From contig JACPJN010000008.1 of the NCBI GenBank assembly GCA_016187515.1, positions 4,525-68,524 of the forward strand: 64,000 nt of DNA. The letters are read 5' to 3'. Source of the DNA: Candidatus Uhrbacteria bacterium. GTDB taxonomy: Bacteria > Patescibacteriota > Patescibacteriia > GWA2-47-26. Shown in pieces: positions 11,230-59,681 of this stretch; position 1 is the first letter of the stretch; each line of letters opens with the position of its first letter. Below the pieces are notes generated by a model. It was not told where the DNA came from and ran no database searches. It was given only the letters and a program-made list of their open reading frames with translations. The translations under genes and the position numbers were made by a program.

Positions 11230-13392
11230 ATGACTAAACAAGAGGCAAAGCAGAGGATTTCCAAATTGCGTCAAGCGATTGATCATCATCGCTATCTTTA
11301 TCATGTGCTGGATCGGCAAGAGATCTCGGAAGCCGCGCTTGACTCGCTTAAGCATGAATTATTTAAGTTGGAGCAGGAGTTTCCGGAATTTATCACTCCG
11401 GATTCGCCAACCCAGCGGGTCGGCGGGGCGCCTTTACCCGAGTTTAAGAAGGTGCCGCATAAGACCCCAATGCTTTCAATGGAAGATGTGTTTACCGCGG
11501 AGGAATTAAGCGAGTGGCTGGCGCGTATTAAGCGGTTATATCCGGCAGGCGCGTATGATTTTTACGCCGAGTTAAAGATGGACGGGCTTGCGGTCTCACT
11601 TATCTATAAACGCGGCGTCCTCGCCGTTGGCTCTACGCGTGGCGATGGGAGAGTGGGGGAGGATGTCACCCAGAATTTAAAGACGATCGAAGCGATCCCG
11701 CTCCGATTACGTATCCCGACGGAGAAGGAGATCAGAGAAATTTTTGCGGATCATAACCCCTCCCAACCTCCCCTTACCTTAAGGGGAGGAGATCGATCAA
11801 TACCCCCTCTTAAGATAAGAGGGGGGAGGGGGAGTTATGAGGCCGCAGGAAAGGCAGTGTATAACAACATCAGGAATGCGCTTGAACATGGCGAGATTGA
11901 AGTGCGCGGCGAGGTGTTCATGCTGAAGAAAACATTTGACGCACTCAATCGCGCACAAAATAAAAAAGGAGAAGAGCCGTTTGCCAATCCGCGCAATGCC
12001 TCCGCCGGTGCGATACGCCAGCTTGATCCGGCGATCAGTGCGTCGCGAAAACTTTCTTTTTTTGGTTATGCGCTTCTTTGCGATCTTGGTTTGACCATGC
12101 ATGCGCAGGAACATGAACTCATGAAATTGCTCGGTGTGCCGATTAATCCTTTGAGCGAGCATTGTGCGACCGTTAATGAAGTTGCTGCATATCAGAAACA
12201 TATTCAGAAAATGCGCGAAAAACTGCCATATTGGACCGATGGGATTGTGGCAGTCGTAAATGATGATCGCACTTTTGAACGGTTAGGCGTGGTCGGCAAA
12301 ACCCCGCGCGGAATCGTGGCATATAAATTCCCGGCGGAGCAGTCAACCACACACGTGGCCGAGGTGCGCTGGCAGGTGGGACGCACTGGAGTGCTCACCC
12401 CCGTGGCGGTGATGGATCCGGTATTTGTGGCCGGTACGACGGTGAGGCACGCGACCCTCCATAATATGGACGAGATTGAGCGGTTGGGGCTCAAGATGGG
12501 GGATACGGTTATTTTGGAAAAAGCCGGAGATATTATTCCGAAGATCATCAAGGTGCTTCCCAAATTGCGGACGGGAAAAGAAAAAGCGATCCAGGCGCCC
12601 ACGCACTGTCCGGTCTGCGCCGCGCGCGTGGAACGTCCCGAGGGAGAGGTGGCCATTCAATGCACGAACAAAAATTGTCCGGCCAAGCACCATGAGCGGC
12701 TGATTCATTTCGTGTCTAGAAAGGCGTTTGACATCGATGGACTGGGAGAAAAGATTGTGAAGCAGCTTATGGATGTTGGTCTTATCTCCACCCCGGCGGA
12801 TATTTTTAAACTGGAAAAAAGCGATCTGGTGGATCTCGAGCGATTCGCCGACAAGTCGGCAGAAAATTTGATTGCCGCCATTGCTAAAGCCCGCGAGATC
12901 AGTTTACCGCGCTTTATTTTTGCCCTCGGAATCAAACATGTTGGTGAAGAGACCGCGGTGGATTTGGCGAAAAGGTTTGGTACGCTAAAGAAGATTCGCG
13001 AGGCCACGTTTGAAGAATTGAATTCGGTTCCGAACATCGGAGAAGTCGTGGCGCAGTCATTACACGAATACTTTTCCGACAAGCACAGCCAAAAGCTGAT
13101 TGACGACTTACTCGCGTCCGGCATCAAAGTTCAAAGCTCTAAGCTCTCTGCCATAAGCCCTAAGCTTCACGGCCTGACGTTCGTTTTGACCGGCGGCCTG
13201 GAATCCATGACCCGCGATGAAGCCAAAGAAAAAATCCGCGATTTAGGCGGCGATATTTCCAGTTCTGTCTCGAAGAATACCGACTATGTTGTGGTTGGCA
13301 GCGAGCCAGGGGATAAACTGGCGCGAGCTAAAAAATTAAATGTAAAAATACTTAACGAGAAGCAATTTCTGGAAATGCTAACGGAAAAGTAA
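11230..13392 (+). CDS. ligA: NAD-dependent DNA ligase
   Basis: ELKMDG adenylation motif, STRGDG, EVRGE, NPRNA, AYKFP, Zn finger, HhH, BRCT. Confidence 0.97.
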   Translation: MTKQEAKQRISKLRQAIDHHRYLYHVLDRQEISEAALDSLKHELFKLEQEFPEFITPDSPTQRVGGAPLPEFKKVPHKTPMLSMEDVFTAEELSEWLARIKRLYPAGAYDFYAELKMDGLAVSLIYKRGVLAVGSTRGDGRVGEDVTQNLKTIEAIPLRLRIPTEKEIREIFADHNPSQPPLTLRGGDRSIPPLKIRGGRGSYEAAGKAVYNNIRNALEHGEIEVRGEVFMLKKTFDALNRAQNKKGEEPFANPRNASAGAIRQLDPAISASRKLSFFGYALLCDLGLTMHAQEHELMKLLGVPINPLSEHCATVNEVAAYQKHIQKMREKLPYWTDGIVAVVNDDRTFERLGVVGKTPRGIVAYKFPAEQSTTHVAEVRWQVGRTGVLTPVAVMDPVFVAGTTVRHATLHNMDEIERLGLKMGDTVILEKAGDIIPKIIKVLPKLRTGKEKAIQAPTHCPVCAARVERPEGEVAIQCTNKNCPAKHHERLIHFVSRKAFDIDGLGEKIVKQLMDVGLISTPADIFKLEKSDLVDLERFADKSAENLIAAIAKAREISLPRFIFALGIKHVGEETAVDLAKRFGTLKKIREATFEELNSVPNIGEVVAQSLHEYFSDKHSQKLIDDLLASGIKVQSSKLSAISPKLHGLTFVLTGGLESMTRDEAKEKIRDLGGDISSSVSKNTDYVVVGSEPGDKLARAKKLNVKILNEKQFLEMLTEK
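11751..11840. repeat. 90-bp Y-shaped palindromic element (TCATAAC...GTTATGA) in frame in ligA
   Basis: Outer inverted ends plus two inner hairpins CCTCCCCTTA-cct-TAAGGGGAGG and CCCCCTCTTA-aga-TAAGAGGGGG; encodes HNPSQPPLTLRGGDRSIPPLKIRGGRGSYE. Confidence 0.95.
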
Positions 13393-13515
13393 CAAGGGTA
13401 GAAAATAATTAAAATCACTCAAAACGTCAAAATACTCAAAAGAATCCATAGCCCATAGCCGTAAAATACTCACGATCGTGAATAAAATTCTACTACGTCT
13501 GCCGTATTCATTATT

Positions 13516-14133
13516 ATGCCGCAAAAAAGTAAAAAGAGGAGTCCATCACGCACTCAGCGCATTTTAGCTAAAATTGATCCGGTGCTTACTCCCGCGCGAG
13601 AGGCATTGTATGAACTAAATCTATTTCTCGGAGCCGCTTCCGGATGGCATCCGATGAGTATTAGTGAATACGAAGACCGCCTTGCAGGGCAGCAGTGGCG
13701 TGAAAAGAAGGAGCGAATTCAATATCTCAAAGAACGGAAATGGATTGAAACGAAAAAGATAGGAAAAAAACTGATGGTGCGGCTTACCGAAAAGGGATGG
13801 CAACAGGTGTTGCGCGACCACATACGATGCACAAAAGTTATGTGCAAGGATGGGGTATGCATTCTCGTGATTTTTGATGTTCCGGAATCGCAACGGCATG
13901 TGCGCGATACATTGCGTTGGATTTTGTCGGAGTGTGGTTTTACTATGCTCCAGAAAAGCGTGTGGTACACCAATAAAGACGTACTTGAACCCCTCTGCGC
14001 GCTTCTTCAAGGAGCAAAACTCAATAAGTGGGTACGTATCATTGTAGGTAATGAGTTTCGGCAGTCGATGATAAAAAATGCAGTAGTTCGTCTGCACGCT
14101 AGGCAAAAGTCCGCAAAAAGCTCACGATCGTGA
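13516..14133 (+). CDS. PaaX-like protein (wHTH plus Cas2-like ferredoxin-fold domain)
   Basis: RLTEKG wing; LVIFDVPE...RDTLR...L..CGFTMLQKSVW motif. Confidence 0.8.
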   Translation: MPQKSKKRSPSRTQRILAKIDPVLTPAREALYELNLFLGAASGWHPMSISEYEDRLAGQQWREKKERIQYLKERKWIETKKIGKKLMVRLTEKGWQQVLRDHIRCTKVMCKDGVCILVIFDVPESQRHVRDTLRWILSECGFTMLQKSVWYTNKDVLEPLCALLQGAKLNKWVRIIVGNEFRQSMIKNAVVRLHARQKSAKSSRS

Positions 14134-14144
14134 GCTTTTTGCGG
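14111..14144. repeat. 34-bp perfect palindrome containing the stop codon of the PaaX-like gene
   Basis: CCGCAAAAAGCTCACGATCGTGAGCTTTTTGCGG; identical copy at 58403-58436. Confidence 0.95.
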
Positions 14145-14249
14145 CAATGGACGGGGTAGTGTGTTTATTGGTGTGGTAGTGTTGCTGATATTTTTACTGG
14201 TAGTGTTGCTCGGTAGAGGTAGCAGAATCACTACTGCGCATTTGTCGCG

Positions 14250-15673: not shown

Positions 15674-15967
15674 ATGGCACTCACTAAAGCAGAAGTCCTG
15701 CATATTGCAAAATTGGCGCGGTTGGAGTTGAAGGAAGAAGAGGTGGAGAAATTTCGGACGCAGTTGTCCGAGATTTTGGAGTATGTGGGGCAGTTGCAAA
15801 AGGTGGACACGGCCGGGATTGAGCCGATTTCCCAAATTACGGGTTTGCAAAATGTAGTGCGGGAAGATTTGGTGCGCGGATGTGAACCGGACGTGCGGGA
15901 CGCTATGCTTGAGCAGTTTCCGAAAAGGAGAGGAGATTTGCTCGAGACACTAGGCGTGTTTGAGTAA
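15674..15967 (+). CDS. gatC: Asp/Glu-tRNA amidotransferase subunit C
   Basis: HIAKLARL, ILEYVGQLQKVDT, NVVRED. Confidence 0.93.
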   Translation: MALTKAEVLHIAKLARLELKEEEVEKFRTQLSEILEYVGQLQKVDTAGIEPISQITGLQNVVREDLVRGCEPDVRDAMLEQFPKRRGDLLETLGVFE

Positions 15968-16085
15968 TTTCTAATTGTTCTAATTATTCTAATTGATCTA
16001 AACAATGACTAATGTCCAATGACCAAAATTGGGATTTGGGGCTTGGGATTTGTTTAGAATAATTAGGTCAATTAGGTGAATTAGA
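15966..16085. repeat. AT-rich imperfect hairpin, copy 1 (gatC-gatA)
   Basis: CTAATT-unit arm, loop, AATTAG-unit arm; near-identical arms at 17547-17658. Confidence 0.85.
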
Positions 16086-16092
16086 TCAATTT

Positions 16093-17556
16093 ATGCCAAA
16101 GCTCAACGAACTCACCATCACCGCCGCCCACGAGGGTTTAAAGCAAAAAGAATTTTCGTCCGAGGAATTGACGCGGGCGTGTCTTAGTCGTATTGCCGAG
16201 GTGGATGGCAAGATCGGCGCGTTTTTGACGGTGCTTGATAAAGAGGCGATCGCGCAGGCCAAAGCCGTGGATAAAAACATCAAGGCCGGTTTGATTCCGG
16301 GTCCGCTGGAGGGGATTCCGGTAGCGCTCAAAGATAATATGTTGGTGCAAGGAGTGAAATGCACGGCGTCTTCGCGTATTTTGGAAAACTACGTTGCGGC
16401 GTATGACGCAACAGTGGTTACAAAGCTCAAACGCGCCGGCGCGGTGATTTTAGGTAAGACCAACAATGATGAATTCGCCATGGGATCTTCCGGCGAAAAC
16501 TCGGCATTCAAGGTTACAAAAAATCCTCATGACCCGGAGCGCGTGCCGGGCGGATCCTCGGCTGGATCGGCGGCCGCAGTGGCGGCCCACGAAACAATCT
16601 ACGCGCTGGGATCTGATACGGGCGGCTCCATTCGTCAGCCGGCTGCGTTATGCGGCGTGGTGGGACTGAAGCCCACTTACGGTTCAGTGTCTCGGTATGG
16701 GTTAATTGCTATGTCATCCGGCTTAGATATCATTGGGCCGTTGACCAAAACCGTGGAAGATGCTCGGATTGTGTTTGATGCGATAAGAGGGAAAGACCCG
16801 ATGGATGCGACGACGGTGGAATTGAGAGAATCAGGAATCATGAATTATGAATCAGGGGTTGGGTTGAAAGACGTACGTATCGGTGTACCGAAGGAGTATT
16901 TTATTGATGGGATGGATAAGGAGACTGAAGCGCGGGTACGCGAGGGCATTGCACAGCTTAAAAAACTCGGCGCTCAAATTGTCGAAATTTCTTTACCATA
17001 TTCTCCGTATGCGCTGGCGGTCTATTATATTTTGATGCCGGCGGAGGTGTCGGCGAATTTGGCAAGGTATGATGGAATACGATATGGATATAGTGAATTA
17101 GTTCACAGTCCACAGTCGTCAGTTCACAGTTTGTTGGAGTTGTACGAGAAATCGCGTTCCGAAGGTTTTGGCGACGAGCCAAAGCGGCGGATTATGATCG
17201 GAACGTATGTGCTTTCGGCCGGATACGCCGATGCTTATTATAAAAAGGCACAAGCCGTTCGCACCCTCGTAAAGCGCGATTTTGATGAGGCCTTTTTGAA
17301 AGTGGATTGTATTGCCACTCCAACTACACCAACTCCGGCTTGGCTTATTGGCGAGAAGATGGATGATCCGCTGTCCATGTATCTTGCCGATATTTATACT
17401 GTGTCCGCAAATATCGCGGGGATTCCGGGAATTTCAGTACCTTGCGGCAAGGCGCAGGGGCTGCCGGTGGGGTTGCAAATTCTGGCGCCGCAGTTGCGAG
17501 AGGATGTGGTGTTTAGGGTGGCAGGAGCGTATGAGCAGAGTCGTACAAATTTCTAA
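16093..17556 (+). CDS. gatA: Asp/Glu-tRNA amidotransferase subunit A
   Basis: Amidase signature PGGSSAGSAA, GSDTGGSIRQPA, NLARYDG, KRRIMIG. Confidence 0.97.
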   Translation: MPKLNELTITAAHEGLKQKEFSSEELTRACLSRIAEVDGKIGAFLTVLDKEAIAQAKAVDKNIKAGLIPGPLEGIPVALKDNMLVQGVKCTASSRILENYVAAYDATVVTKLKRAGAVILGKTNNDEFAMGSSGENSAFKVTKNPHDPERVPGGSSAGSAAAVAAHETIYALGSDTGGSIRQPAALCGVVGLKPTYGSVSRYGLIAMSSGLDIIGPLTKTVEDARIVFDAIRGKDPMDATTVELRESGIMNYESGVGLKDVRIGVPKEYFIDGMDKETEARVREGIAQLKKLGAQIVEISLPYSPYALAVYYILMPAEVSANLARYDGIRYGYSELVHSPQSSVHSLLELYEKSRSEGFGDEPKRRIMIGTYVLSAGYADAYYKKAQAVRTLVKRDFDEAFLKVDCIATPTTPTPAWLIGEKMDDPLSMYLADIYTVSANIAGIPGISVPCGKAQGLPVGLQILAPQLREDVVFRVAGAYEQSRTNF

Positions 17557-17658
17557 TTGCTCTAATTATTCTAATTGACCTAAACAATACACAATATCCA
17601 ATGTTCAATCTTGGGATTTGTTTAGAATAATTAGGTCAATTAGGTGAATTAGAAATTT
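17547..17658. repeat. AT-rich imperfect hairpin, copy 2 (gatA-lgt); contains gatA stop
   Basis: AAATTTCTAATT...AATTAGAAATTT terminal inverted repeat. Confidence 0.85.
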
Positions 17659-21880: not shown

Positions 21881-22237
21881 ATGTTGGTCAAAACTTTTAA
21901 CGACATTATCGCGTGGCAGAAAGCGCATGAGCTGGCACTTGCAGTCTACAGAATTACCGAGAAGTTTCCGAAAACCGAAATCTTTGGATTAGTGAGTCAG
22001 ATGCGAAGGTGCGGGGTGTCGATCCCGTCAAATATCGCGGAAGGATTTAAAAGAAAATCAAAAAATGATTCAGTACATTTTTACAACATCGCGGAGGGAT
22101 CATTGGAAGAATTGAAGTATCAATTACTTTTGTCTTCAGATTTAGGTTATATTTCAAAGGAGGTCTATCAACAAATGAGCGCAATTGCGGACGAAACCGG
22201 TAAATTGTTGAATGGTTGGAAGAGGGCTCAAAAATGA
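21881..22237 (+). CDS. Four-helix-bundle protein (23S rRNA intervening-sequence protein family, Avd-like fold)
   Basis: AWQKAHEL, FPKTEIFGLVSQMRR, SIPSNIAEG, IAEGSLEE. Confidence 0.92.
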   Translation: MLVKTFNDIIAWQKAHELALAVYRITEKFPKTEIFGLVSQMRRCGVSIPSNIAEGFKRKSKNDSVHFYNIAEGSLEELKYQLLLSSDLGYISKEVYQQMSAIADETGKLLNGWKRAQK

Positions 22238-23247: not shown

Positions 23248-23263
23248 TGAAAGTGTATAAACA

Positions 23264-23415
23264 GACCCCCTCTCACTCCCCCTTGAAAAGGGGTAGAAAA
23301 CGGCGGGACCCCCTCTAACTCCCCCTCGGAGAGGGGGAGAAGCGATCCGATTTCCTCCCCTTACCAAGGGGAGGTTAGGAGGGGTCTAACCGAGAGGGGG
23401 AGATCAGGAGGGGGT
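23264..23415. repeat. Nested CCCCCT/AGGGGG palindromic elements, intergenic
   Basis: Inner 80-bp element GACCCCCTCTAACTCCCCCTCGG...GGAGGTTAGGAGGGGTC (23307-23386) inside a second element; same family as metG 50735 and 58920. Confidence 0.9.
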
Positions 23416-28292: not shown

Positions 28293-28364
28293 TCCGGGGT
28301 GGCGCAGCGGTAGCGCAGCTCCCTGTTAAGGAGTTGGTCGTGGGTTCGAATCCCACCCCCGGAG
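28293..28364 (+). tRNA. tRNA-Asn (GTT)
   Basis: Acceptor TCCGGGG/CCCCGGA, anticodon arm CTCC-CTGTTAA-GGAG, T arm GTGGGTTCGAATCCCAC; CCA not encoded. Confidence 0.95.
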
Positions 28365-28377
28365 CCTGAAACTTACT

Positions 28378-28479
28378 ATGTTCCATGTATATATCATCCA
28401 AAATCTTACTCGTGGTACGCGTTATGTGGGTAGTGCCGAGGATGAGGAATCCCACTCTCGGAGGCATAGTGAGAATTAA
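28378..28479 (+). pseudogene. Truncated GIY-YIG nuclease
   Basis: MFHVYIIQNLTRGTRYVGSAED matches the VYI...YVG N-terminus; stops after 33 codons. Confidence 0.6.
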
Positions 28480-31089: not shown

Positions 31090-31210
31090 GCAAACAATCC
31101 GCCAATCAATTCCTCCCCTTAAGGTAAGGGGAGGCGAGGAGGGGTTATGCTTCCGTCTCAATCCCAATCGGAGTTGATTTTTTGTTTTTGAGGTGGTAGG
31201 ATAGGGGAAT

Positions 31211-32617: not shown

Positions 32618-32620
32618 AAT

Positions 32621-38557: not shown

Positions 38558-38915
38558 CATGTGAAATCTCTCCCACCCCCTCTAACTCCCCCTCGGGCAG
38601 GGGGAGAAATTTTATTGGGCAGGAGGGGAAAGTGATAACCGAATACTCGCCAAAAGATTTTAAAAATTTTTAATCCCACACCCCAAACTCCCAACCCCAA
38701 ACCATCCTTAAATTCTCAAGTATTTAAGGATAAAAAATCTCCATTCTGCGATTCCCTCCTACGGCGGACAGGCGCGCGAATCGCAGAATGCCGCAGTGGA
38801 CAGGCACACGTTAAGCGGGGTAGGCAGGAATCCAAAACGCGTCACCATTGGCGCGTTTGTGCATATACTTGACATTTTCCTTCATTTATGAAACAATGTC
38901 TTCAGGAGGAAAACA

Positions 38916-44211: not shown

Positions 44212-46200
44212 ATGGCCATACCTTACGCGCGGGATTTGAATCGCGAACAATTAGCAGTGGTGCAAGGGGGCGACGGCCCCTGTTTGGTCTTGGCCGGAGC
44301 CGGAACCGGAAAGACGCGCACCATTACCTATCGGGTCGCGTATTTACTGGAGCAGGGGGTGGCGCCCGGGCGCATTCTGCTCGTAACTTTTACCAACAAA
44401 GCCGCGCGGGAAATGCTCCGCAGGGTGGAACTCTTGATGGGTGCCCGGCCGCAAGGGCTCTGGGGCGGGACCTTTCACCATGTGGGTCACGCGCTCCTGC
44501 GCCGTTACGGGTCGCGCATCGGAATTCCGCCGTCATTTACAATTTTGGACGCGGATGACAATGCCGAATTGCTGAAAGCCGTAATGGCGGCCAGCGGCCG
44601 CGGTAAAAAAAGTGATCAGTACTTTCCGGCGCCGGACGTGGTGGAAAATCTGATCAGTTTCGCGGCCAATAGCGGACGTCCGCTGCCGGAGCTTATTTTA
44701 GAGTGGCTGCCGCGGCATGCTGATAAAACTCCGGAACTGCTGCGTATCGCGGCCGCTTATGAGCAAAGAAAACGTGAGCGGAATGTCGTCAGTTTTGATG
44801 ATCTCTTGGCTTTTTGGCTGCGCATTTTACGGGAGCGTCCGGAAGTGCGTGAAAAGCTGGGCGGAAAATTTGACTACATCTTAATTGATGAATATCAAGA
44901 TACGAATCGCCTGCAAGGGATGATTGTGGAGGAATTGGCGCGGGGCGCGAAAAATGTTTTGGTCGTCGGCGATGACGCCCAGTCCATCTATGCTTTCCGC
45001 GCCGCCACGGTTGAAAATATTATGCGCTTTCCGGAGGTCTTTCCCGGAGCGCGAACCTTCCGGCTGGTGCAGAATTATCGTTCCACCCAGGCGATTTTGG
45101 ATCTTGCCAATGCCGTAATTATTTGCAATCGCCGGCAGTTTGAAAAAGAACTGCGTACCGTGCGTGGCCGCGGATCTACACCGGAGCTCATCGGCTGCGC
45201 GGATAATCGCGAGGAAGCCCGATTTATTGTTGATCGCGTGCTGGAATTTCATAGTGAAGGCGAAACACTTTTGGAGAGCGCGGTATTATTCCGAGCCGCG
45301 TATCATGGCATGCAGATTGAACTGGAACTTCAAAAACGCGGCGTGCCCTACATTATTCGGGGCGGAATTCGGTTTTTTGAGCAGGCGCACATTAAGGATG
45401 TGGTGGCGTATTTGCGCGTGGTCGCCAATCCGCTAGACGAATTAGCGTGGCAGCGCATGCTTAAAATGGAAGAGGGGATCGGCGATAAAACGGCGGCAGT
45501 GATTGTAGAAAAGTTGATTCATAACGCCCCCCCGCCCCCTCTTACCTTAAGAGGGGGAGCGGCTGACAATCCTCCCCTTAAGATAAGGGGAGGTGCAGGA
45601 GGGGTTATGAAAAGCGAAGCAGGATTAGCAAAGGTGCTCCGGCGCGTGGATCACCTTAAGACCGTGCCGCAGGTTGATAAAATGATTTCGTATGTGCTGG
45701 AGGCGTTTTATGCGGATTATGCTCAAGCGCAGTTCGAAAATGCGACGGAGCGGCTGGAGGATCTTGAGCAACTGGCCTTGTTTGCGGCCTCCTATGAAAA
45801 ATTGGAGGAATTTTTAGCCGATGCGACGCTTTCGGAAGGATTTCGCGGTGATCGCGCCGCGGCAACGCCGCAGGATGCGGATAAAGAATATCTGGTGCTC
45901 TCGACCATCCATCAGGCCAAAGGTCTGGAATGGAAAAATGTATTTGTGGTCGGACTGGTTGACGGACAATTTCCGCATCACAAATCCCGCGCGCGCCGCG
46001 AGGAGCTGGAAGAAGAACGCCGTTTATTTTATGTGGCGATTACCCGCGCGCGGGAGCGGCTCTACTTAACTTATCCGCTAACAAGCTTAGCGGCGCTGGG
46101 AACCGCGATACACCAGCCGTCGCTGTTTGTGCGCGAACTTGATCCGGAATTATATCAAGAGATCCGGAATGAGGAAACCGTGATTGAATATGCGGACTAA
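44212..46200 (+). CDS. UvrD/PcrA family DNA helicase
   Basis: AGAGTGKT, TFTNKAA, DEYQD, VGDDAQSIY, NYRS, TIHQAKGLE, EERRLFYVAITRA. Confidence 0.95.
   Translation: MAIPYARDLNREQLAVVQGGDGPCLVLAGAGTGKTRTITYRVAYLLEQGVAPGRILLVTFTNKAAREMLRRVELLMGARPQGLWGGTFHHVGHALLRRYGSRIGIPPSFTILDADDNAELLKAVMAASGRGKKSDQYFPAPDVVENLISFAANSGRPLPELILEWLPRHADKTPELLRIAAAYEQRKRERNVVSFDDLLAFWLRILRERPEVREKLGGKFDYILIDEYQDTNRLQGMIVEELARGAKNVLVVGDDAQSIYAFRAATVENIMRFPEVFPGARTFRLVQNYRSTQAILDLANAVIICNRRQFEKELRTVRGRGSTPELIGCADNREEARFIVDRVLEFHSEGETLLESAVLFRAAYHGMQIELELQKRGVPYIIRGGIRFFEQAHIKDVVAYLRVVANPLDELAWQRMLKMEEGIGDKTAAVIVEKLIHNAPPPPLTLRGGAADNPPLKIRGGAGGVMKSEAGLAKVLRRVDHLKTVPQVDKMISYVLEAFYADYAQAQFENATERLEDLEQLALFAASYEKLEEFLADATLSEGFRGDRAAATPQDADKEYLVLSTIHQAKGLEWKNVFVVGLVDGQFPHHKSRARREELEEERRLFYVAITRARERLYLTYPLTSLAALGTAIHQPSLFVRELDPELYQEIRNEETVIEYAD
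45519..45610. repeat. TCATAAC...GTTATGA element in frame in the helicase
   Basis: Encodes HNAPPPPLTLRGGAADNPPLKIRGGAGGVM. Confidence 0.93.
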
Positions 46201-47494
46201 GCCAACCGTTTATCTTGACCATGCGGCGGCAACGCCGCTGGATCCGCGCGTGGCGGAAGCAATGGTGCCATACTTACGCGCAGAATATGGCAATCCATCC
46301 GCGCTTTACGCACTGGGACGTGCCGCACGCGAGGCAGTGGATAACGCGCGGGAGACCGTGGCGCGCATTTTGAATTGCCGCGCGGCGGAGATTGTATTTA
46401 CCGGCAGTGGAACCGAGTCGGACAATTTGGCGGTGTTTGGCGTGGCAAAAAACTACGCACATAACTCACCCCATCCCTCCCTTACCTCCGACGCCCTGAA
46501 GGGTCGGAGTCCGACCGAAGCGTCGGACTTAGGGGAGGGGGCCGATACAAATACCCCCCTTAGGGTAAGGGGGGGCAGGGGGGTTACGAAGGGCCACCTT
46601 ATCACCACCGCCATTGAACACCATGCCGTGCTCAATCCCTGCCGCGCGCTTGAAAAAGAGGACTATGCAGTAACTTATTTGAAAGTGGAACATGATGGAT
46701 TGATAACCCCGGAGCAACTTAGAGCCGCAATTCGGCCGGACACCGTGTTAATCTCAATAATGTATGCAAATAACGAGATCGGCACCATTGAGCCAATCGC
46801 GGCGCTGACCCGCGCGGTACGGGCGTGGAAAAAAGAACACGGTAGAAAGGAAAACGACCCGCCGTTTTTTCACACGGACGCGTGTCAGGCCGCCGGATAT
46901 CTGGACATGGATGTGGGGCGACTGGGTGTGGACTTGCTCACACTGAATGCCAGTAAAATCTACGGCCCAAAAGGTGTGGGAGCATTGTATGTGCGGCGAG
47001 GAATAAAATTGCAACCGTGCATTTACGGCGGCGGACAAGAGTTTGGGTTGCGCTCCGGCACAGAAAACGTGGCGGCGATTGTGGGGATGGGGAAGGCGCT
47101 GGAGTTGGTGGTGAGATTAAGAGACCAAGAGATTAAGAGATTAAGTGGGTTGCGGGATCGGTTGATTGCGGGGATTTTGGCGCGTGTGGAAGGTGCGGAA
47201 TTGAATGGACACCCCACGCAACGCCTGCCCAATAATGTGAATATCTCAATTTCCGGCATTGAGGGCGAGGCCATGCTATTCTATTTGGATGAACATGGAA
47301 TCTCGGCCGCTACCGGTTCGGCTTGCGAGTCCGCCGGTCCGGATCCATCGCATGTTGTTCAGGCGCTAGGAAAATCCCGCGACGCCGCGCGATCCAGTAT
47401 TCGCTTTACCCTGGGGCGCGGGACAATGAAGGACGACGTTGAGTATGTGTTGGAGGTATTACCGGGAATAGTTCAAAAATTGCGCCACAAATAA
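46190..47494 (+). CDS. iscS: Cysteine desulfurase
   Basis: YLDHAAATP, EHHAV, NNEIG, HTDACQ, KIYGPKG, RSGTEN, TGSAC. Confidence 0.93.
   Translation: MRTKPTVYLDHAAATPLDPRVAEAMVPYLRAEYGNPSALYALGRAAREAVDNARETVARILNCRAAEIVFTGSGTESDNLAVFGVAKNYAHNSPHPSLTSDALKGRSPTEASDLGEGADTNTPLRVRGGRGVTKGHLITTAIEHHAVLNPCRALEKEDYAVTYLKVEHDGLITPEQLRAAIRPDTVLISIMYANNEIGTIEPIAALTRAVRAWKKEHGRKENDPPFFHTDACQAAGYLDMDVGRLGVDLLTLNASKIYGPKGVGALYVRRGIKLQPCIYGGGQEFGLRSGTENVAAIVGMGKALELVVRLRDQEIKRLSGLRDRLIAGILARVEGAELNGHPTQRLPNNVNISISGIEGEAMLFYLDEHGISAATGSACESAGPDPSHVVQALGKSRDAARSSIRFTLGRGTMKDDVEYVLEVLPGIVQKLRHK
46460..46588. repeat. CATAAC element with a nested 42-bp TCCGAC...GTCGGAC hairpin, in frame in iscS
   Basis: 129 bp = 43 codons; nested part 46487-46528 = 14 codons. 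Confidence 0.92.
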
Positions 47495-47986: not shown

Positions 47987-48062
47987 CCATGTACCTTCGA
48001 ACAGTCGGTTCTCTCGCGGAGCCGGCTCTTTTCTTTTTTTGTGAAATTTGGTAGTGTGTTGG

Positions 48063-48100
48063 CATAACCCCTCCTCGCCTCCCCTTACCTTAAGGGGAGG
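48063..48100. repeat. Left half of CATAAC element upstream of thiI
   Basis: CATAACCCCTCCTCGCCTCCCCTTACCTTAAGGGGAGG; exact inverted copy at 31111-31150. Confidence 0.9.
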
Positions 48101-48113
48101 AAATTGTTAGAGT

Positions 48114-49337
48114 ATGCAGCAGGTCTATGTAGTGCATTATCATGAAATCGCCTTAAAGGGCCGGAATCGGCCGGATTTTTTGCGGCAGCTGCAGGAAAAT
48201 ATTTGCCGGGCAACCGGGCTTCGGAAGGGGAGTGTGAAGATTGTGTCGGGGCGGCTACTGGTGCGACCCCCTCTTAATCTCCCCCTTGAAAAGGGGGAGA
48301 AAATTGTTCGCGCATTGCAACGGACGTTTGGGATTTCTTCGTTTTCACCGGCGGCGCTTGTTAAGGCGGAGTATGGAGAGATTGTGCAAGCAGTAAAAAG
48401 CTCCATAGTTCCAAGTATGGAACTTTTTACCAAGTGGAATACTTTTGCAATTAGAGCCACGCGCGGGGATAAAGAGTTTTCCCTGACCTCTAAGGAAATT
48501 GAAGTCAAGCTAGGAGATTTTGTGCGTGAAAAGTTTAAGAAAAAAGTGGATCTTGAAAGTCCGGATGTTACATTTTATGTTGAAGTTTTTTCCGCCAAAG
48601 GCGGATCCGCCTCGGGAGGACCCGGTGGCGCCGTGGTGTATACCGAAAAAATTCCTGGTCCGGGCGGTCTGCCGGTTGGCACGCAGGGAAAAGCGGCCGT
48701 GATGCTCTCGGGCGGCATTGATTCGCCAGTGGCCGCCTATCGCATATTAAAACGCGGCGCACCGATTGTGGGTGTGCATTTTCATAGTTACCCATTTACT
48801 TCTCGCGCTTCAATTGATAAAGTAAAAGAGCTGGCCGGAGTACTGGCGCGATATGGCGGCCCATTTAAATTGTTCCTGGTCCCGCTTACCGACGCGCAAA
48901 AAGCCGTAATACAGAATTGCGAGGAACGTTATCGCGTGCTGCTATATCGGCGGCTGATGGTGCGGATTGCGCAGGAACTGGCGCGCCACGAAGGCGCGCA
49001 AGCGTTGGTTACCGGGGAAGCGCTCGGGCAAGTCGCTTCGCAGACCATTGAAAACATCGGGGTAACGGACGCGGCCGCAACACTGCTCATCCTGCGCCCG
49101 CTTATCGGCTATGACAAAGAGGAAATCATCGCGGAGGCAAAACGCATCGGCACGTACGAAATTTCCATCCTGCCGCATGATGATTGCTGTACCATAATGA
49201 TGCCGAAAAATCCCGCTACCCGGGCGCGGCTTTCGGATGTGGAGCGAGAAGAAGTAAAGTTGGAGGTGAGTCGTCTTATTGATAACGCATTAGAATGCGC
49301 AGAACTCATAACCCTCCCCAGCCCTCCCTTATCTTAA
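48114..49337 (+). CDS. thiI: tRNA 4-thiouridine synthase (no rhodanese domain)
   Basis: EIALKGRNR, THUMP, GGLPVG, LSGGIDSPVA, GEALGQVASQT, DCC. Confidence 0.94.
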   Translation: MQQVYVVHYHEIALKGRNRPDFLRQLQENICRATGLRKGSVKIVSGRLLVRPPLNLPLEKGEKIVRALQRTFGISSFSPAALVKAEYGEIVQAVKSSIVPSMELFTKWNTFAIRATRGDKEFSLTSKEIEVKLGDFVREKFKKKVDLESPDVTFYVEVFSAKGGSASGGPGGAVVYTEKIPGPGGLPVGTQGKAAVMLSGGIDSPVAAYRILKRGAPIVGVHFHSYPFTSRASIDKVKELAGVLARYGGPFKLFLVPLTDAQKAVIQNCEERYRVLLYRRLMVRIAQELARHEGAQALVTGEALGQVASQTIENIGVTDAAATLLILRPLIGYDKEEIIAEAKRIGTYEISILPHDDCCTIMMPKNPATRARLSDVEREEVKLEVSRLIDNALECAELITLPSPPLS

Positions 49338-49395
49338 GGGAGGGAGACGATCGCGATCCCCCTCTTAAGGTACGAGGGGGTAGGGGGAGTTATGA
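49306..49395. repeat. 90-bp TCATAAC...GTTATGA element supplying the thiI stop
   Basis: Same architecture as ligA copy; TAA at 49335-49337 lies in the first hairpin. Confidence 0.93.
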
Positions 49396-50524: not shown

Positions 50525-52240
50525 ATGCTCAAAAAGTTGTCAAGTACAGGCAAGAAATTCTATATCACAACTCCAATTTACTACGTCAACGACGTGCCGC
50601 ATATTGGGCATGCGTATACGACGATTGCGGCGGATGTGTTGGCGCGGTATTATCGGGCGCGCGGCGAGCCGGTGCGTTTTTTGTGCGGCACGGATGAGAA
50701 CGCGCAGAAGAATGTGGAGGCGGCGTTGCGACACACCCCCTCTAACTCCCCCTCGGAAAGGGGGAGAAAACAATTTCCTCCCCTTTTGAAGGGGAGGTTA
50801 GGAGGGGTCCGTGAAGTTGTCCAGCAGTACGTTGATGAAATGTCGGCGAAGTGGCAGCGCACGTGGGACGAGCTCCAGATTTCCAATGACGATTTTATCC
50901 GCACTACCGAGCCGCGGCATGTAAAATATGTGGAGAAATTTTGGGGCCTGGTAAAAAAGGGCGATATTTATAAAGGCCAGTACGAGGGTCTGTATTGTAC
51001 CGGTTGTGAAGCGTACAAAACCGAAACCGAACTTGTAAAAGGCAAGTGCCCGGATCATAATCGCGCGCCGGAAAAATTAAGCGAGGAAAATTATTTTTTC
51101 AAACTTTCCGCGTATCGCAAAAAATTGTTAGCGCATATTAAAAAGCATCCCGAATTTATTCAGCCCGAAGCGCGGCGCAATGAAGTAACGGCGTATATTC
51201 GCGACCACACGGCGGATTTCAGCATTTCGCGAAAAAATTTGGAGTGGGGGATTCCGGTTCCGGGCGATCCGTCGCAGACGATCTATGTCTGGTTTGACGC
51301 GCTGCTCAACTACATTAGTGCAGTAACTCCCTCACCCCCTCCTCAATCCTCCCCCATCAAGGGGGAGGAAGAAAAAGGAAGTTCCCCTCCCCTTGTGGGA
51401 GGGGTTAGGGGAGGGGTCAATGGTGAGGGGTGGTGGCCGGCGGATTTGCATCTGGTTGGCAAAGACATAATCAAATTTCACTGCGCCTACTGGCCGGCCA
51501 TGCTAATGTCAGCCGGACTTCCGCTTCCACGAACAATTTTTGCGCATGGATTTTTCACCGTGGATGGCCAGAAAATGAGCAAAACCATCGGCAATGTTGT
51601 TGATCCGGTGGCAATGGCGAAAAAATATGGTAATGACGTTTTGCGTTATTATTTAATGCGTGAAATTCCGTTTGGCGGAGATGGAGATTTTTCCGAAGCG
51701 CGTTTACGGGAGCGCTACAATGGCGAGCTGGCCAACGGGCTTGGAAATTTGGTGGCGCGAGTATTGACGATGGTGGAGAAGTACAGTGAAGGTGTGGTTC
51801 ATAACCCCTCCCAACCTCCCCTTACCTTAAGGGGAAGAGACGATCGCGTACCCCCTCTTAAGGTAAGAGGGGGCGAGGGGGAGTTATGGCAACAATACGA
51901 ATCCCACATGGCACAATATCAGCTTGACCGCGCGCTAGACACGGTGTGGAAATTTATTAGCGCACTGGACGCTTTGATTGATCAGGAACAGCCGTGGAAA
52001 TTGGCAAAACATGACAAAGAGCGCCTTAATATGGTATTATATACTTTAGCCGAGAATTTACGTCACATCGCTTGGATGCTCCTGCCTTTTATGCCGGAGA
52101 CCGCGGGAAAGATCTTTGAACAACTTGGTGTGCCACGCGAGACCTCCGAACGCACGTATGAACAGGCAAAAGAATGGGGCGGCCTCAAATCCGGCACAAA
52201 AATCGAGCGAGGAGATTCCTTATTTCCACGATTAATATAA
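50525..52240 (+). CDS. metG: Methionyl-tRNA synthetase with three in-frame palindromic segments
   Basis: YITTPIYYVN, HIGH, FIRTT, YVWFDAL, GKDI, KMSKT. Confidence 0.97.
   Translation: MLKKLSSTGKKFYITTPIYYVNDVPHIGHAYTTIAADVLARYYRARGEPVRFLCGTDENAQKNVEAALRHTPSNSPSERGRKQFPPLLKGRLGGVREVVQQYVDEMSAKWQRTWDELQISNDDFIRTTEPRHVKYVEKFWGLVKKGDIYKGQYEGLYCTGCEAYKTETELVKGKCPDHNRAPEKLSEENYFFKLSAYRKKLLAHIKKHPEFIQPEARRNEVTAYIRDHTADFSISRKNLEWGIPVPGDPSQTIYVWFDALLNYISAVTPSPPPQSSPIKGEEEKGSSPPLVGGVRGGVNGEGWWPADLHLVGKDIIKFHCAYWPAMLMSAGLPLPRTIFAHGFFTVDGQKMSKTIGNVVDPVAMAKKYGNDVLRYYLMREIPFGGDGDFSEARLRERYNGELANGLGNLVARVLTMVEKYSEGVVHNPSQPPLTLRGRDDRVPPLKVRGGEGELWQQYESHMAQYQLDRALDTVWKFISALDALIDQEQPWKLAKHDKERLNMVLYTLAENLRHIAWMLLPFMPETAGKIFEQLGVPRETSERTYEQAKEWGGLKSGTKIERGDSLFPRLI
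50735..50808. repeat. ACCCCCTCTAAC...GGAGGGGT element in metG
   Basis: Encodes TPSNSPSERGRKQFPPLLKGRLGGV. Confidence 0.92.
51329..51429. repeat. CCCTCACC...GGTGAGGG element in metG
   Basis: Encodes PSPPPQSSPIKGEEEKGSSPPLVGGVRGGVNGEG between YVWFDALLNY and WWPAD. Confidence 0.9.
51799..51888. repeat. CATAAC...GTTATG element in metG
   Basis: Encodes HNPSQPPLTLRGRDDRVPPLKVRGGEGEL. Confidence 0.93.
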
Positions 52241-52250: not shown

Positions 52251-52336
52251 CTCCTCCCCTTAAGATAAGGGGAGGTTGGGAGGGGTTATGACAATTGACA
52301 TAACTCCCCCTGCCCCCTCTTACCTTAAGAGGGGGG
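52251..52336. repeat. Right half then left half of CATAAC element, intergenic
   Basis: ...GGGGTTATGA-caattga-CATAACTCCCCC... Confidence 0.9.
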
Positions 52337-52350
52337 ATGCATTGGCAAAT

Positions 52351-52857: not shown

Positions 52858-53805
52858 ATGTTAATTGATTATCACGCCCATGTAAATTTTGGCGCATTTA
52901 AGGATGATGCGGAGGCGGTGATCAAACGCGCGCTTGACAGCGGCGTTTTTATGATTTTAGTGGGCACGCAGATTGACACGTCGCGGCGCGCGGTGGAGAT
53001 GGCGTCTATGCACAAAACAGGCGTGTGGGCGTCGGTGGGATTGCATCCGATACATTTAGAAAAAACCGAGCGCGATGAGGAAGAGAGTCATTTTATTTCA
53101 CGCGCCGAGGTGTTTGATCCGGCTGCCTACCGCGCGTTGGCACAGCACGAAAAAGTTGCCGCAATAGGGGAGTGTGGCCTTGATTATTGGCACATTGTAG
53201 ATGCGCAGACCCCTCCTATCCTCCCCTTGGCAAGGGGAGGAAAAATTTCTCCCCCTCTTGGAGGGGGAGTGAGAGTGGGTCCGGAGTGGGTTCAGGAAGT
53301 CAAAGCGCGTCAGCACCGAACATTTCGCCAGCATCTTGATTTAGCCGACGAGCTGGATTTACCGCTAATTTTGCATTGCCGGGGGAGCGTGGGTGATCCA
53401 GAAGATGCCTACCGCGACATGCTGGTGATTTTGCGCGAGTACGTGGAAGGCGGAAAAATAAAACGGCGCGGCTCTATCCATTGTTTTGTGTCCACTTGGG
53501 ACATCGCGCAAGATTTTCTGGGCCTGGGATTTCATATTGGATTTACCGGTGTAATTACATTTGTAAAAAGTGGCGTTGGCCCGTATGATGAGGTGGTACG
53601 CAATGTGCCACTTGAGCGCATTCTGGTGGAAACCGATTGTCCGTATCTTGCGCCAGTCCCGATGCGGGGAAAGCGCAATGAGCCGCTCTACGTCCGCTAT
53701 GTGGCGGAAAAAGTGGCGGAGATCAAGGGGATGAATCGGATGGATGTGAAAAAGCAGTTGTTCGAGAATACGTTAAGAGTGTTCTATAAAATTTCCTCCC
53801 CTTAA
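52858..53805 (+). CDS. tatD: TatD family nuclease
   Basis: DYHAH, GLHP, AIGECGLDY, LHCR, HCF, ETDCPYLAP, RGKRNEP. Confidence 0.94.
   Translation: MLIDYHAHVNFGAFKDDAEAVIKRALDSGVFMILVGTQIDTSRRAVEMASMHKTGVWASVGLHPIHLEKTERDEEESHFISRAEVFDPAAYRALAQHEKVAAIGECGLDYWHIVDAQTPPILPLARGGKISPPLGGGVRVGPEWVQEVKARQHRTFRQHLDLADELDLPLILHCRGSVGDPEDAYRDMLVILREYVEGGKIKRRGSIHCFVSTWDIAQDFLGLGFHIGFTGVITFVKSGVGPYDEVVRNVPLERILVETDCPYLAPVPMRGKRNEPLYVRYVAEKVAEIKGMNRMDVKKQLFENTLRVFYKISSP
53208..53281. repeat. Double-hairpin element in frame in tatD
   Basis: Encodes TPPILPLARGGKISPPLGGGVRVG. Confidence 0.88.
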
Positions 53806-53909
53806 GATAAGGGGAGGTCAGGAGGCGTTATGAAAAGTTCATAACTCACCCCAGCCCTCTCTTATCTTTCCGCCCGAGGCGGATCCGCCTCGGGCGGAAA
53901 GAGAGGGGG
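53794..53909. repeat. Right half (supplies tatD stop) then left half with nested 30-bp palindrome
   Basis: TCCGCCCGAGGCGGATCCGCCTCGGGCGGA at 53869-53898 sits in the hairpin loop. Confidence 0.9.
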
Positions 53910-54008
53910 ATTGATAAAAAAAAGCCGCCGGATCCGGAGGGGGGCGCTGCGCGGATTGACTCACGCGCATCCGAATCCGACGGCGGGGTGTAGAAGGAGC
54001 GGGGCGGG

Positions 54009-54419: not shown

Positions 54420-55238
54420 ATGTCAAGTGTATCCGTCATTATCCCGTGCTACAATGCCGAGCGCACGATTGAGCGGTGCTTGGAGTCAATTTTCGCGCAG
54501 ACGTATCGGAATGTTCACATTGTCATTGTGAATGATGGTTCTACGGATGCCACACTTTCAGTAGTGCACGATACGATTTCACGATTGCGCAATCGTGAAA
54601 TGCGTATCGAGGTGGTGTCGCAGGAAAATCGAGGGGCTAACGCGGCGAGAAATAGGGGATTTGCGGAATGTGTGACACATAACCCACCCCAACCCTCCCT
54701 TACCTTAAGGGAGGGGGAATCGTCCAGGGTTCCTCCCCTTAGGGTAAGGGGAGGTGAGGAAGGGTTACGAACCGCGCACTATGCGCTCTTCTGTGATGCG
54801 GATATTGTGCTCCGCCGCGACTGCCTTGAAAAAATGGTACGCGCGCTAGAGGAACACCCCGATGTATCATATGCTTACTCTTCATTTAAATTCGGATGGA
54901 AAACATTTAAGCTCTGGCCGTTTGATGCAGAGCGCTTGCATAAAATGCCATACATCCACACGACGTCGCTCATTCGCGCGGATCACTTTCCCGGTTGGGA
55001 TGAATCCATAAAACGCCTGCAGGACTGGGACCTTTGGCTTACCATGCTTGAACAAGGACACACCGGCGTATGGATTCCCGAAGTGCTATTTCGCGTGATA
55101 AATACCAAAGGCACCATGAGCACGTGGCTGCCCTCATTTGCCTATAACATCCCCAAATGGCTGGGAATACAACCCAAGGCCGTAATGCTCTATAATGAGG
55201 CCGTGGCGCGTATAAAAGCGAAACATAACCTAAAATAG
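54420..55238 (+). CDS. Glycosyltransferase family 2
   Basis: VSVIIPCYN, VNDGSTD, NRGANAARNRG, FCDAD, QDWDLWL. Confidence 0.93.
   Translation: MSSVSVIIPCYNAERTIERCLESIFAQTYRNVHIVIVNDGSTDATLSVVHDTISRLRNREMRIEVVSQENRGANAARNRGFAECVTHNPPQPSLTLREGESSRVPPLRVRGGEEGLRTAHYALFCDADIVLRRDCLEKMVRALEEHPDVSYAYSSFKFGWKTFKLWPFDAERLHKMPYIHTTSLIRADHFPGWDESIKRLQDWDLWLTMLEQGHTGVWIPEVLFRVINTKGTMSTWLPSFAYNIPKWLGIQPKAVMLYNEAVARIKAKHNLK
54569..54609. repeat. Palindrome in frame in GT2
   Basis: 26-bp perfect core ATTTCACGATTGCGCAATCGTGAAAT with CGATACG/CGTATCG arms. Confidence 0.85.
54678..54769. repeat. CATAAC...GTTACG element in frame in GT2
   Basis: Encodes HNPPQPSLTLREGESSRVPPLRVRGGEEGLR between ARNRG and the DxD strand. 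Confidence 0.93.
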
Positions 55239-56941: not shown

Positions 56942-56950
56942 CACGCTTCT

Positions 56951-57058
56951 CCTCCCCTTAGGGTAAGGGGAGGTTGGCCTGCCTGCGCAGGCAGGGAGGG
57001 GTTACGAGATGTGCATGGCTCATAACCCACCCTACCCTCCCTTATCTTAAGGGAGGGG
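56951..57058. repeat. Right half (nested CCTGCCTGCGCAGGCAGG) then left half of CATAAC element
   Basis: GTTACGA 57001-57007; TCATAAC 57020-57026. Confidence 0.9.
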
Positions 57059-57063
57059 ATCCA

Positions 57064-58078: not shown

Positions 58079-58115
58079 CCACGGATCGATGACCAGATTG
58101 CCACAGATCACGGAT

Positions 58116-59681
58116 ATGCGATTTCGTACTCTCGTTTTGATATTTCTTCTTGCCGAGCTTGTTTCATACACGGGATATTTTTTTCCAGCAATAAATACCG
58201 CGGGATTTTTTGTGACTGTGGCGGCGGCGTTGGTGCTATCGCTTAAGCGGCTGGAGTATGGATTGTATTTTGTATTGGCGGAATTGATTTTGGGAGGGAA
58301 AAGCGGAGCGCTGTTTTCTTTTGAATATGGGGGATTTTTTCTTTCGCTGCGCATGGCATTGTTTATCGTGATCATTGCAGTATGGTTTGCTAAAATGATC
58401 GGCCGCAAAAAGCTCACGATCGTGAGCTTTTTGCGGCAGCCATCTTTAAGATGGTGGGGCATTCTAGGTATCGCTGTGCTCTGGGGAATTATAGTTGGAC
58501 TTGCGCGCGGCAATGATTTTGGCAATGTGTTCCTAGATGCGAATGGATATTTTTATGCCGCATTAATTTTGCCAGTGTGGTGGGCGCTTAAGGGTGCGAA
58601 TTACGAATCCGTTGCGAATTCACGAATCTCGAATTCGGAGATTCGCAAATCCCAGTCGAATTCGCAATTCGCACCCCTCGGTACAGTGTTTTTTGCCGCC
58701 ACCACCCTCCTCGCGCTGAAGACGCTTTTTGCGGTGTATCTTTTTACCCACGCCGGCAGTAATTTTATTGGCGCGAATTTGGCGCCGTTTTATCGGTGGA
58801 TCAGGGATACCGGAGTAGGGGAGATTACTTGGCTGCCCGGAAATTTCGCAAGAGTGTTTTTCCAGAGTCAGATTTATAATGTGATGGCGTTTTTCGCGGT
58901 GCTGGTTATTCTGATGCGCACCCCCTCTCACTCCCCCTCGGAAAGGGGGAGAAATTGGTTGCAATTTCCTCCCCTTTTCAAGGGGAGGTTCGGAGGGGTC
59001 TTGATTCTCAATACCGCCGTCATCATTGTTTCCCTTTCCCGCAGTTTTTGGGTGGGGATGATCGCGGGATTGCTCGTGGTCGCGGTGGTCTCGGGCCGTA
59101 TCGGACGGATACGGCATATCGGACGCCTGGTCGGCCTCCTTGCGGGTTCCGCGGTCGCGGCAGTACTGCTGCTTCTTGCCTTCGCCCGTTTTCCATTCCC
59201 CAAACCGGCCCCGGCGGATTTGGGAACCGCGGTCCAAAGCCGGCTGGAAGCCGGAGACGCCGGACAAAGCCGCTGGAATCTTTTGCCGGCAATGTGGAGT
59301 ACCGTTCGTGAGCATCCAATCCTTGGCAGCGGATTTGGGCGCACGGTAACGTATATCTCGAATGATCCCAGAGTTCGTGAGGTTAGCCGTACCGGAGAAT
59401 ATACAACTTACGCTTTTGAATGGGGGTGGATTGACGTGTGGGTGAAGATGGGACTGATGGGACTTATAGGTCTTATCGGTCTTATGGGACGCATAGGAAT
59501 TATGCTCTACCGTCGGGCAAAAACTGACCCTCGGGCCTTGGCTGCTCTTGCAGTTCTCGCTGTTCTTGCTTCAATCAATATATTTACCCCCTACTTAAAT
59601 CACCCCTTGGGGCTGGGCATTTTAATCCTGCTTGCCGGGATAAGTATCGCTTGTCAGGAGAAGCGCCTTATGGTATCCTGA
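58116..59681 (+). CDS. O-antigen ligase/polymerase-like membrane protein with several in-frame repeats
   Basis: Multi-TM; SLSRSFW, R...W......HPILGSGFG; start 58089 or 58116. Confidence 0.8.
   Translation: MRFRTLVLIFLLAELVSYTGYFFPAINTAGFFVTVAAALVLSLKRLEYGLYFVLAELILGGKSGALFSFEYGGFFLSLRMALFIVIIAVWFAKMIGRKKLTIVSFLRQPSLRWWGILGIAVLWGIIVGLARGNDFGNVFLDANGYFYAALILPVWWALKGANYESVANSRISNSEIRKSQSNSQFAPLGTVFFAATTLLALKTLFAVYLFTHAGSNFIGANLAPFYRWIRDTGVGEITWLPGNFARVFFQSQIYNVMAFFAVLVILMRTPSHSPSERGRNWLQFPPLFKGRFGGVLILNTAVIIVSLSRSFWVGMIAGLLVVAVVSGRIGRIRHIGRLVGLLAGSAVAAVLLLLAFARFPFPKPAPADLGTAVQSRLEAGDAGQSRWNLLPAMWSTVREHPILGSGFGRTVTYISNDPRVREVSRTGEYTTYAFEWGWIDVWVKMGLMGLIGLIGLMGRIGIMLYRRAKTDPRALAALAVLAVLASINIFTPYLNHPLGLGILILLAGISIACQEKRLMVS
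58402..58437. repeat. 36-bp perfect palindrome in frame
   Basis: GCCGCAAAAAGCTCACGATCGTGAGCTTTTTGCGGC (RKKLTIVSFLR); core identical to 14111-14144. Confidence 0.95.
58592..58676. repeat. CGAAT/ATTCG hairpin in frame
   Basis: GGGTGCGAATT...AATTCGCACCC; encodes GANYESVANSRISNSEIRKSQSNSQFAP. Confidence 0.88.
58920..58999. repeat. ACCCCCTCTCAC...GGAGGGGT element in frame
   Basis: Encodes TPSHSPSERGRNWLQFPPLFKGRFGGV; close match to metG 50735-50808. Confidence 0.92.

Follow-up and report, generated by a model that had tools for sequence, protein, structure and literature searches.

The BoxC repeat of Escherichia coli has, to our knowledge, been an orphan since the 1990s, without a known enzyme or role. 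The K-12 genome holds 23 copies, always intergenic, and the accessible text of Holder et al. (2015; PMC4666352) names no mobile element or enzyme linked to them; by the same text, the inverted BoxC pairs of E. coli combine types A and B in all five cases. Among other palindromic repeats, the accessible parts of the literature describe REPINs that insert into or beside each other (Bertels and Rainey, 2011; PMC3116915) and repetitive extragenic palindromic (REP) sequences that lie within genes (Di Nocera et al., 2013; PMC3733652). Here we consider a window of 64,000 nucleotides (nt) from a genome of Candidatus Uhrbacteria (contig JACPJN010000008.1; G000:C3:4525-68524 in our numbering), in which an earlier note had reported ten palindromic elements inside genes, most of them for core enzymes. 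These elements are very likely repeats of the BoxC/PIT/TM (triplex motif) type, and translated. Such repeats, translated in frame, are probably copied or exchanged in place by the DUF559 nucleases that they bracket.

The genome under study (G000) has 1,215,133 bases in 10 contigs, is 100% complete and carries 1,039 genes as called within this analysis; the genomes of its class relatives measure 0.6-1.6 Mb. A finder for a hairpin followed by a mirrored strand returns 365 units in G000, against 0 and 0 in two shuffled genomes and 4 in the reversed genome, so the units are not a chance product. The suggestion of a mobile-looking hairpin family is supported; copies share descent, hence unit counts are not counts of independent events. 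The conserved unit is a GC-rich half of about 40 nt, made of a hairpin and, mirroring its purine arm, a third strand. Units fall into families A to E, which are our own classes defined by regular expressions. Along the G-rich strand, the parts of a family-A half are, in order, a pyrimidine arm of 7 nt, TTA, a loop of 3 nt, TAA, the purine arm, a linker of 1-5 nt, a third strand of 7 nt and TTA(Y)G. A perfect hairpin is present in 133 of the 153 A units (shuffled mean 32, maximum 48), and the third strand mirrors its own purine arm, with T allowed for A, again in 133 of 153 (shuffled mean 31, maximum 47). The same anatomy is found in 49 of 61 A units of G003, a sister genus with a median identity of 66% that serves as the main comparison genome, and in 20 of 32 of a third genome, G005. 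The first loop base and the terminal pyrimidine of the 153 units combine as A-T in 104, G-C in 44, G-T in 3 and otherwise in 2, and both A-T and G-C occur in several stem subtypes; this base would pair with the GTTA(Y)G end and thereby cap the triplex. Unit termini across the families are GTTAYG, GGGGT(C), GTGGGAG and GGTGAGG, and none is a GTAG or CGTC tag.

Many units stand as inverted pairs. A Y-shaped fold of the whole pair had been proposed as the conserved form, with an outer stem; as a conserved helix this stem was rejected, since the outer arms are fully complementary in 0 of 28 Y dimers. The Y drawn by folding programs, which here use only Watson-Crick and wobble pairs and no triplex, is thus a by-product of two inverted units, and the covariation is three-way within each half. 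The two halves of a pair are heterotypic: over three genomes the purine arms are equal in 1 of 68 pairs (null 15.6, minimum 5). Among the 109 inverted pairs of G000, 87 have their tails outward and 22 inward; the former are intragenic in 78 of 87 cases and the latter in 5 of 22, with 39 of 40 and 3 of 8, respectively, in G003. This genome-wide bias of outward pairs to genes and inward pairs to intergenic DNA goes beyond what frame alone would give. Whole dimers from unrelated loci can be as much as 97% alike, and elements in genes lie in both orientations.

The location of the elements is largely coding. The 352 units grouped into 231 elements place 147 (64%) inside 116 of the 1,039 genes, 58 between genes, 22 at 3' ends and 4 at 5' ends, and the intragenic elements encode about 3,500 residues. 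All ten in-gene elements of the earlier note are where it put them, inside open frames, and their hosts are confirmed by Pfam as LigA, UvrD, aminotransferase V/IscS, ThiI, MetG, TatD, GT2 and Wzy_C; further copies lie between genes and at gene ends of the window, and what had been taken as one second family of about 75-100 bp consists of at least two, B and D. The five family-A copies among them all start in the HN.. frame, as the note had said, and so do 83 of 86 in-gene A units of the genome. One of the other two frames does meet the TAA of CTTAAG; the remaining one meets that of CATAAC instead and is used, as a Y-L-K frame, by 3 of 86 units. The exit frames of the five copies differ (SYE, GVM, ELW, GVT and GLR) because linker and spacer lengths change. 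Both flanks of an element match one G003 protein in order at 130 of 147 inside elements and at 0 of 84 others, and the reverse test from G003 gives 137 of 153 inside elements and 0 of 44 outside open reading frames (ORFs). No gene is interrupted by any element, so the inserts are likely translated rather than excised.

In the predicted structure of MetG the core is kept and the three inserts lie in loops between helices, in agreement with the proposed tolerance of loops; confidence (pLDDT) is 36-56 at the inserts, in part a result of thin alignment there, and above 85 over most of the core. Matches to solved MetG structures break at two of the inserts and show a gap at the third. The family-A insert that MetG shares with G003 is identical at 81 of 93 nt, and its four-fold degenerate sites at 10 of 11, versus 40 of 109 outside it, as expected if, as suggested, structure rather than peptide is conserved. 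The in-gene repeats likely become disordered loops rich in Pro and Gly. In LigA, the helix-loop region at about amino acids (aa) 160-215 that carries the insert is absent in G004, indicating that the repeats colonised a lineage-specific insertion. With repeat-derived residues in 11% of its genes, this streamlined 1.2-Mb genome shows to what degree parasitic loops are tolerated by essential enzymes, and the loops that bear the repeats form a natural map of insertion-tolerant sites.

The occupants of these sites change between relatives. At the 134 of 147 G000 sites that are comparable with G003, the latter has a unit of the same class in 37, of another class in 36, a filling without a triplex call in 24, an empty site in 36 and an unaligned one in 1, a division softened by the use of class D as a catch-all in this comparison. 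Orthologue alignment, which had been proposed to define empty sites and target duplications, supplied the former only: no target duplication is visible at the empty sites at 66% identity, and at 28 dimers the lengths of candidate duplications are distributed as in shuffled pairs. Orthologue pairs are decorated in both genomes in 72 of 611 cases, against 27.7 expected with length stratification (maximum 40). A second classification, with control windows placed in the same genes, finds 77 triplex and 11 other hairpins at 125 sites in G003 (60 and 17 in 375 control windows) and 21 and 19 at 91 sites in G005 (15 and 19 in 273). At the uvrD site, G000 has a fresh A dimer and, after it, a worn tail whose codons now spell SEAGL and look like the remains of an older element; G003 has a family-D dimer and then an old A tail, and G004 and G005 retain A/A' remnants. 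A simultaneous change of subtype in all three arms is seen in 3 of 12 orthologous A units, a count that is blind to units with nested or altered ends. Units are also nested inside units. Layered remnants, subtype switches and nesting together suggest exchange in place, and we lean, by a little, towards in-place replacement as a main route of turnover.

A candidate for the enzyme stands beside the repeats. The search proposed for a REP-associated tyrosine transposase (RAYT) or DUF559 gene was answered on one side only: the Y1_Tnp profile of RAYTs has 0 matches in the complete G000, and five DUF559 genes are present, all outside the window and all five flanked by inward-pointing repeat halves, mostly of a distinct family each. 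In the family-A cassette, whose nuclease gene lies at G000:C7:123358-123678 on the minus strand, the GTTATG of the left half provides the DUF559 start, the TCATAA of the right half the stop, and the repeat a purine-rich leader. Class-wide, 74 DUF559 loci (some two thirds of all strong matches, picked by score and from A-bearing genomes) were collected; where clear of contig edges, they have a unit at the gene on at least one side in 65 of 71 cases and on both in 33 of 71. Across phyla, with one DUF559 protein as the query (its alignment had no conserved word) and 73 of 80 loci scored, a unit points at the gene in 49 of 73; the corresponding figures are 4 in 522 for control windows and 66 in 1,032 for ordinary genes. 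The annotated DUF559 gene ycjD of E. coli K-12 ends inside a half, with a BoxC copy (TMECO copy 9) about 170 nt downstream. Of the 21 genomes that carry the strict A pattern, 20 have a DUF559 gene, as opposed to 61 of 130 that lack the pattern; as kin, these genomes are not independent. On a quick tree and a FastTree tree, from which L084 was left out as too short, A-flanked DUF559 proteins cluster (5 changes against 10.5 expected, 0 of 500 shuffles).

The DUF559 protein, of about 120 aa, is predicted to be a small Vsr-like nuclease. Its model (pLDDT 91) matches the folds of 3HRL from N. gonorrhoeae and of I-Bth0305I (3R3P) with TM-scores of 0.66-0.68, two structures grouped with Vsr in the accessible part of PMC3424549; E61, D63 and G64 are invariant, and H67 and D76 nearly so. 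Families B and C number 57 and 33 units in G000 and 3 and 6 in G003; G003 holds D- and E-flanked DUF559 genes, and G005 only an A-like gene together with 33 A units. Family counts follow the nucleases held in these three genomes, with one exception. At G005:C5:28209-29405, the right flank of an A-like DUF559 gene has been lost, and the gene continues in frame into an unrelated membrane protein. From gene arrangement, DUF559 is reasonably, if not comfortably, favored as the driving enzyme of the repeats.

The proposed mechanism is as follows. In single-stranded DNA, a unit would fold into a purine-motif intrastrand triplex, which the cognate DUF559 nuclease would nick. Repair could then fill the break with a copy of another unit or dimer; families would in this way spread over sites where a hairpin is already present and create new sites only sometimes. 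Selection would retain only those inserts that have an open frame in a tolerant loop. It is tentatively possible that the repeats belong to a widespread and hitherto undescribed class of selfish DNA in which minimal Vsr-like nucleases, each paired with one repeat family, read a folded DNA triplex and drive that family by overwriting rival repeats in place. If so, in this lineage a contest takes place inside the proteome, with hundreds of enzyme loops rewritten by DNA turnover and old tails becoming protein structure. The points that weigh against exchange in place by these nucleases are given with the two explanations that follow.

The sites may instead be hot spots without replacement, each family inserting at random and selection leaving survivors in a few hundred tolerant loops, a reading we find doubtful. 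It would account for the ligA loop, which carries four unrelated hairpin families in four genomes (three of them in G002, G003 and G005) and is short in G001, and for the insert that G029, from a distant family of the class, has at MetG site 1. Non-triplex hairpin families are enriched at the same sites in G005 (13 of 64; null 2.3, or 4.5 within genes), and 8 of the 12 orthologous A units keep their subtype. Only 354 other loops with large indels were counted, so that independent hits on tolerant loops could explain much of the site sharing; this count, however, is a lower bound. Random insertion also sits poorly with old tails that persist beside new dimers in uvrD, with units inside units and hairpins inside loops, with the subtype switches in all three arms at orthologous sites, and with the 12 of 109 inverted pairs that mix classes A, B, C and D in combinations other than A+A, D+D, B+C and B+B.

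DUF559 may also be a cargo or addiction gene, the mover being another enzyme in trans, such as a lost RAYT or transposase, or host recombination at triplex-stalled forks. We think this unlikely, although several observations count against DUF559 as the driving enzyme. No flank is called at 24 of the 73 cross-phylum loci, and DUF559 is found in 61 of 130 genomes without the strict A pattern. Among the loci fetched, an A-flanked gene occurs in only 6 of the 21 strict-A genomes, which leaves A units without such a nuclease in 15; G003 itself has 62 A units and no A-flanked DUF559. The protein tree is poorly resolved, with 41 of 70 forks open, and its clustering is no proof of co-evolution because flanks and gene travel together. 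Nor do we know of Vsr-like folds that act as transposases. Replication-stall instability has been proposed for BoxC by Holder et al. (2015; PMC4666352), whose accessible text reports a stable triplex in vitro and no stable triplex in vivo, the latter unfavorable to a nuclease that reads the folded unit. Against a mover in trans stand the absence of any Y1_Tnp match in the complete genome, the lack of target duplication beyond chance, the triplex-motif flanks of all five DUF559 genes and the agreement of family counts with flanked nucleases.

It is improbable that the repeats are kept for a role in RNA (mRNA hairpins, Shine-Dalgarno supply, termination) or for their peptides. They do supply start or stop signals in places, but the mirrored third strand takes no part in Watson-Crick pairing, the accessible text of PMC4666352 states that RNA does not form purine-motif triplexes, peptides differ between families at one site, and genes hold elements in both orientations. 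Removal from DNA or RNA before translation, in the manner of tiny introns, had been left open by the earlier note and is highly improbable. The folds are stable (z -3.3 to -6.5), and the excess of outward-tail dimers in genes is not fully explained. A dimers are open in just 34 of 162 frames, however, so that excision would leave many broken frames, and none is broken in either genome. A stop codon lies inside 19 of the 22 elements at gene ends, and a conserved segment of UvrD apparently incorporates an old tail. The iscS, tatD and Wzy elements are each spanned, gapless and unaltered, by DNA contigs, although the runs behind these are possibly the source samples; among 15 listed joints of 95, contigs from four DNA runs show none that skips a single element exactly. 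The matching sequencing runs listed include none of RNA, which has no bearing on expression. An assembly artefact from collapsed repeats deserves next to no credence: contigs do break at several elements, but the same sites are filled in independently assembled genera, frames are always intact and three elements are bridged.

The elements of the window are collected in the table. The one in iscS is longer than other A copies because of an unrelated hairpin of about 40 nt in its left loop.

Table. Triplex-motif elements in the window (positions of the 64,000-nt stretch).
Feature	Position	Strand	Context
Family-A dimer: pair of inverted triplex-motif halves with outward tails	11751..11840	+	in frame in ligA (ORF 11230-13392)
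Cluster of three family-B halves	23261..23387	no strand	intergenic
Single family-A half	31107..31150	+	intergenic
Single family-C half	38571..38611	-	intergenic
Family-A dimer	45519..45610	+	in uvrD (ORF 44212-46200)
Family-A dimer	46460..46588	+	in iscS (ORF 46184-47494); ~40-nt secondary hairpin nested in left loop, about 46487-46527
Single family-A half	48062..48105	-	just upstream of thiI
Single family-B half	48265..48302	+	in thiI (ORF 48114-49337)
Family-A dimer	49306..49395	+	spans 3' end of thiI; hairpin TAA is the thiI stop, 49335-49337
Family-B dimer	50735..50808	+	in metG (ORF 50525-52240), aa ~70-95; low-confidence predicted loop; other repeat here in G003
Family-D dimer	51329..51429	+	in metG, aa ~268-302; one family-E half in G003; empty in G005
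Family-A dimer	51799..51888	+	in metG, aa ~426-455; shared with G003; unrelated hairpin family there in G005
Family-A pair, tails inward	52251..52338	no strand	intergenic; same arrangement as around DUF559 genes
Family-B-type dimer	53208..53281	+	in tatD (ORF 52858-53805)
Family-A pair, tails inward	53791..53910	no strand	end of tatD; unit 1 gives stop 53803-53805, unit 2 with nested loop hairpin
Family-A dimer	54678..54769	+	in GT2 glycosyltransferase gene (ORF 54420-55238); other-family dimer at site in G003
Family-A pair	56946..57062	no strand	intergenic; nested palindrome in linker of one unit
Family-B dimer	58920..58999	+	in O-antigen ligase/Wzy gene (ORF 58089-59681)

Small unrelated palindromes lie inside loops or linkers of A units at 46487-46527, 53839-53905 and 56970-56995; secondary hairpins nested in A loops occur in all three genomes, and the iscS type is found at other loci in G003 (3) and G005 (1). 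A second palindrome family flanks (13459-14146) a PaaX-like gene that includes a Cas2-like domain (13516-14133). A perfect 35-nt copy of this palindrome lies in frame in the Wzy gene (58402-58436), and C10 of G003 has three related copies in a stretch of 900 nt; gene and palindromes are possibly another nuclease-plus-repeat pair. Elsewhere in G000, a long hairpin family of its own surrounds a small GIY-YIG gene (L236, G000:C7:188772-188993), and similar hairpins occupy protein loops in G002 and G005. The region 28293-38360 looks like a cassette array or island: a tRNA gene is followed by repeated leaders of about 120-155 nt (28508-31214) before single cassette-like genes (NYN, zeta-toxin-like, unknown, RadC), and then by Phd/YefM and a restriction-modification set. 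AT-rich repeat families lie at 6544-7181, 9809-9853 and 15966-17658, some within pilin-like ORFs, and a 23S-IVP/bAvd-like gene for a four-helix bundle at 21881-22237. Rfam matches in the window are tRNA only, and one strict pattern for the full family-A dimer has 0 matches in viral contigs.

The kind of repeat is known; its abundance within genes, its nuclease partner and its turnover in loops were not found in print. Searches that left out most subscription journals and supplements returned no paper linking DUF559 to these repeats and none on intragenic palindromes in the candidate phyla radiation (CPR). The Rickettsia palindromic elements, cited as a precedent in the earlier note, are one for coding: they too are palindromes in frame in intact housekeeping genes, at loop positions, in a small genome. 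Otherwise they are unlike, being apparently another kind of sequence (as described in the accessible part of PMC3733652), whereas the present elements have a triplex mirror arm, a candidate nuclease and family turnover. The closest match is BoxC and triplex motifs combined with REPIN-RAYT logic. With REP/REPIN-RAYT systems the elements share short palindromic units, inverted doublets, some copies in genes, a plurality of families with an enzyme gene of its own next to each, and insertion into or near existing repeats. They differ in the lack of a GTAG/CGTC tag and of an HUH tyrosine transposase, the partner being the predicted Vsr-like nuclease, and in being mostly intragenic, with heterotypic doublet arms that form no single long hairpin. 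Unlike miniature inverted-repeat transposable elements (MITEs), they have no target-site duplication. DUF559 resembles I-Bth0305I and Vsr-like homing endonucleases in fold and in its acidic and His residues, but its genes are free-standing between repeat halves, with no intron or intein. The likeness to BoxC/TMECO is in class II form: a C-rich arm, a short loop, a G-rich arm, a linker of about 3 nt and a mirrored G-rich third strand. The 9-nt CCCTCNCCC arms of BoxC/TMECO are fitted in form by family E (36 copies, with a looser pattern), whereas the arms of A, B and C differ; in family A the arms are 7 nt long, TTA/TAA extends the stem, and the GTTA(Y)G end covaries with the loop. Intergenic location is a property of the E. 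coli copies and not of the motif, given the mostly intragenic position and several families of the G000 elements. As in E. coli (accessible text of PMC4666352), inverted pairs in G000 join two types, and as in the present cassettes, a DUF559 gene, ycjD, adjoins a BoxC copy. BoxC thus acquires a candidate for a cognate nuclease, and the question of its enzyme becomes directly testable in K-12.

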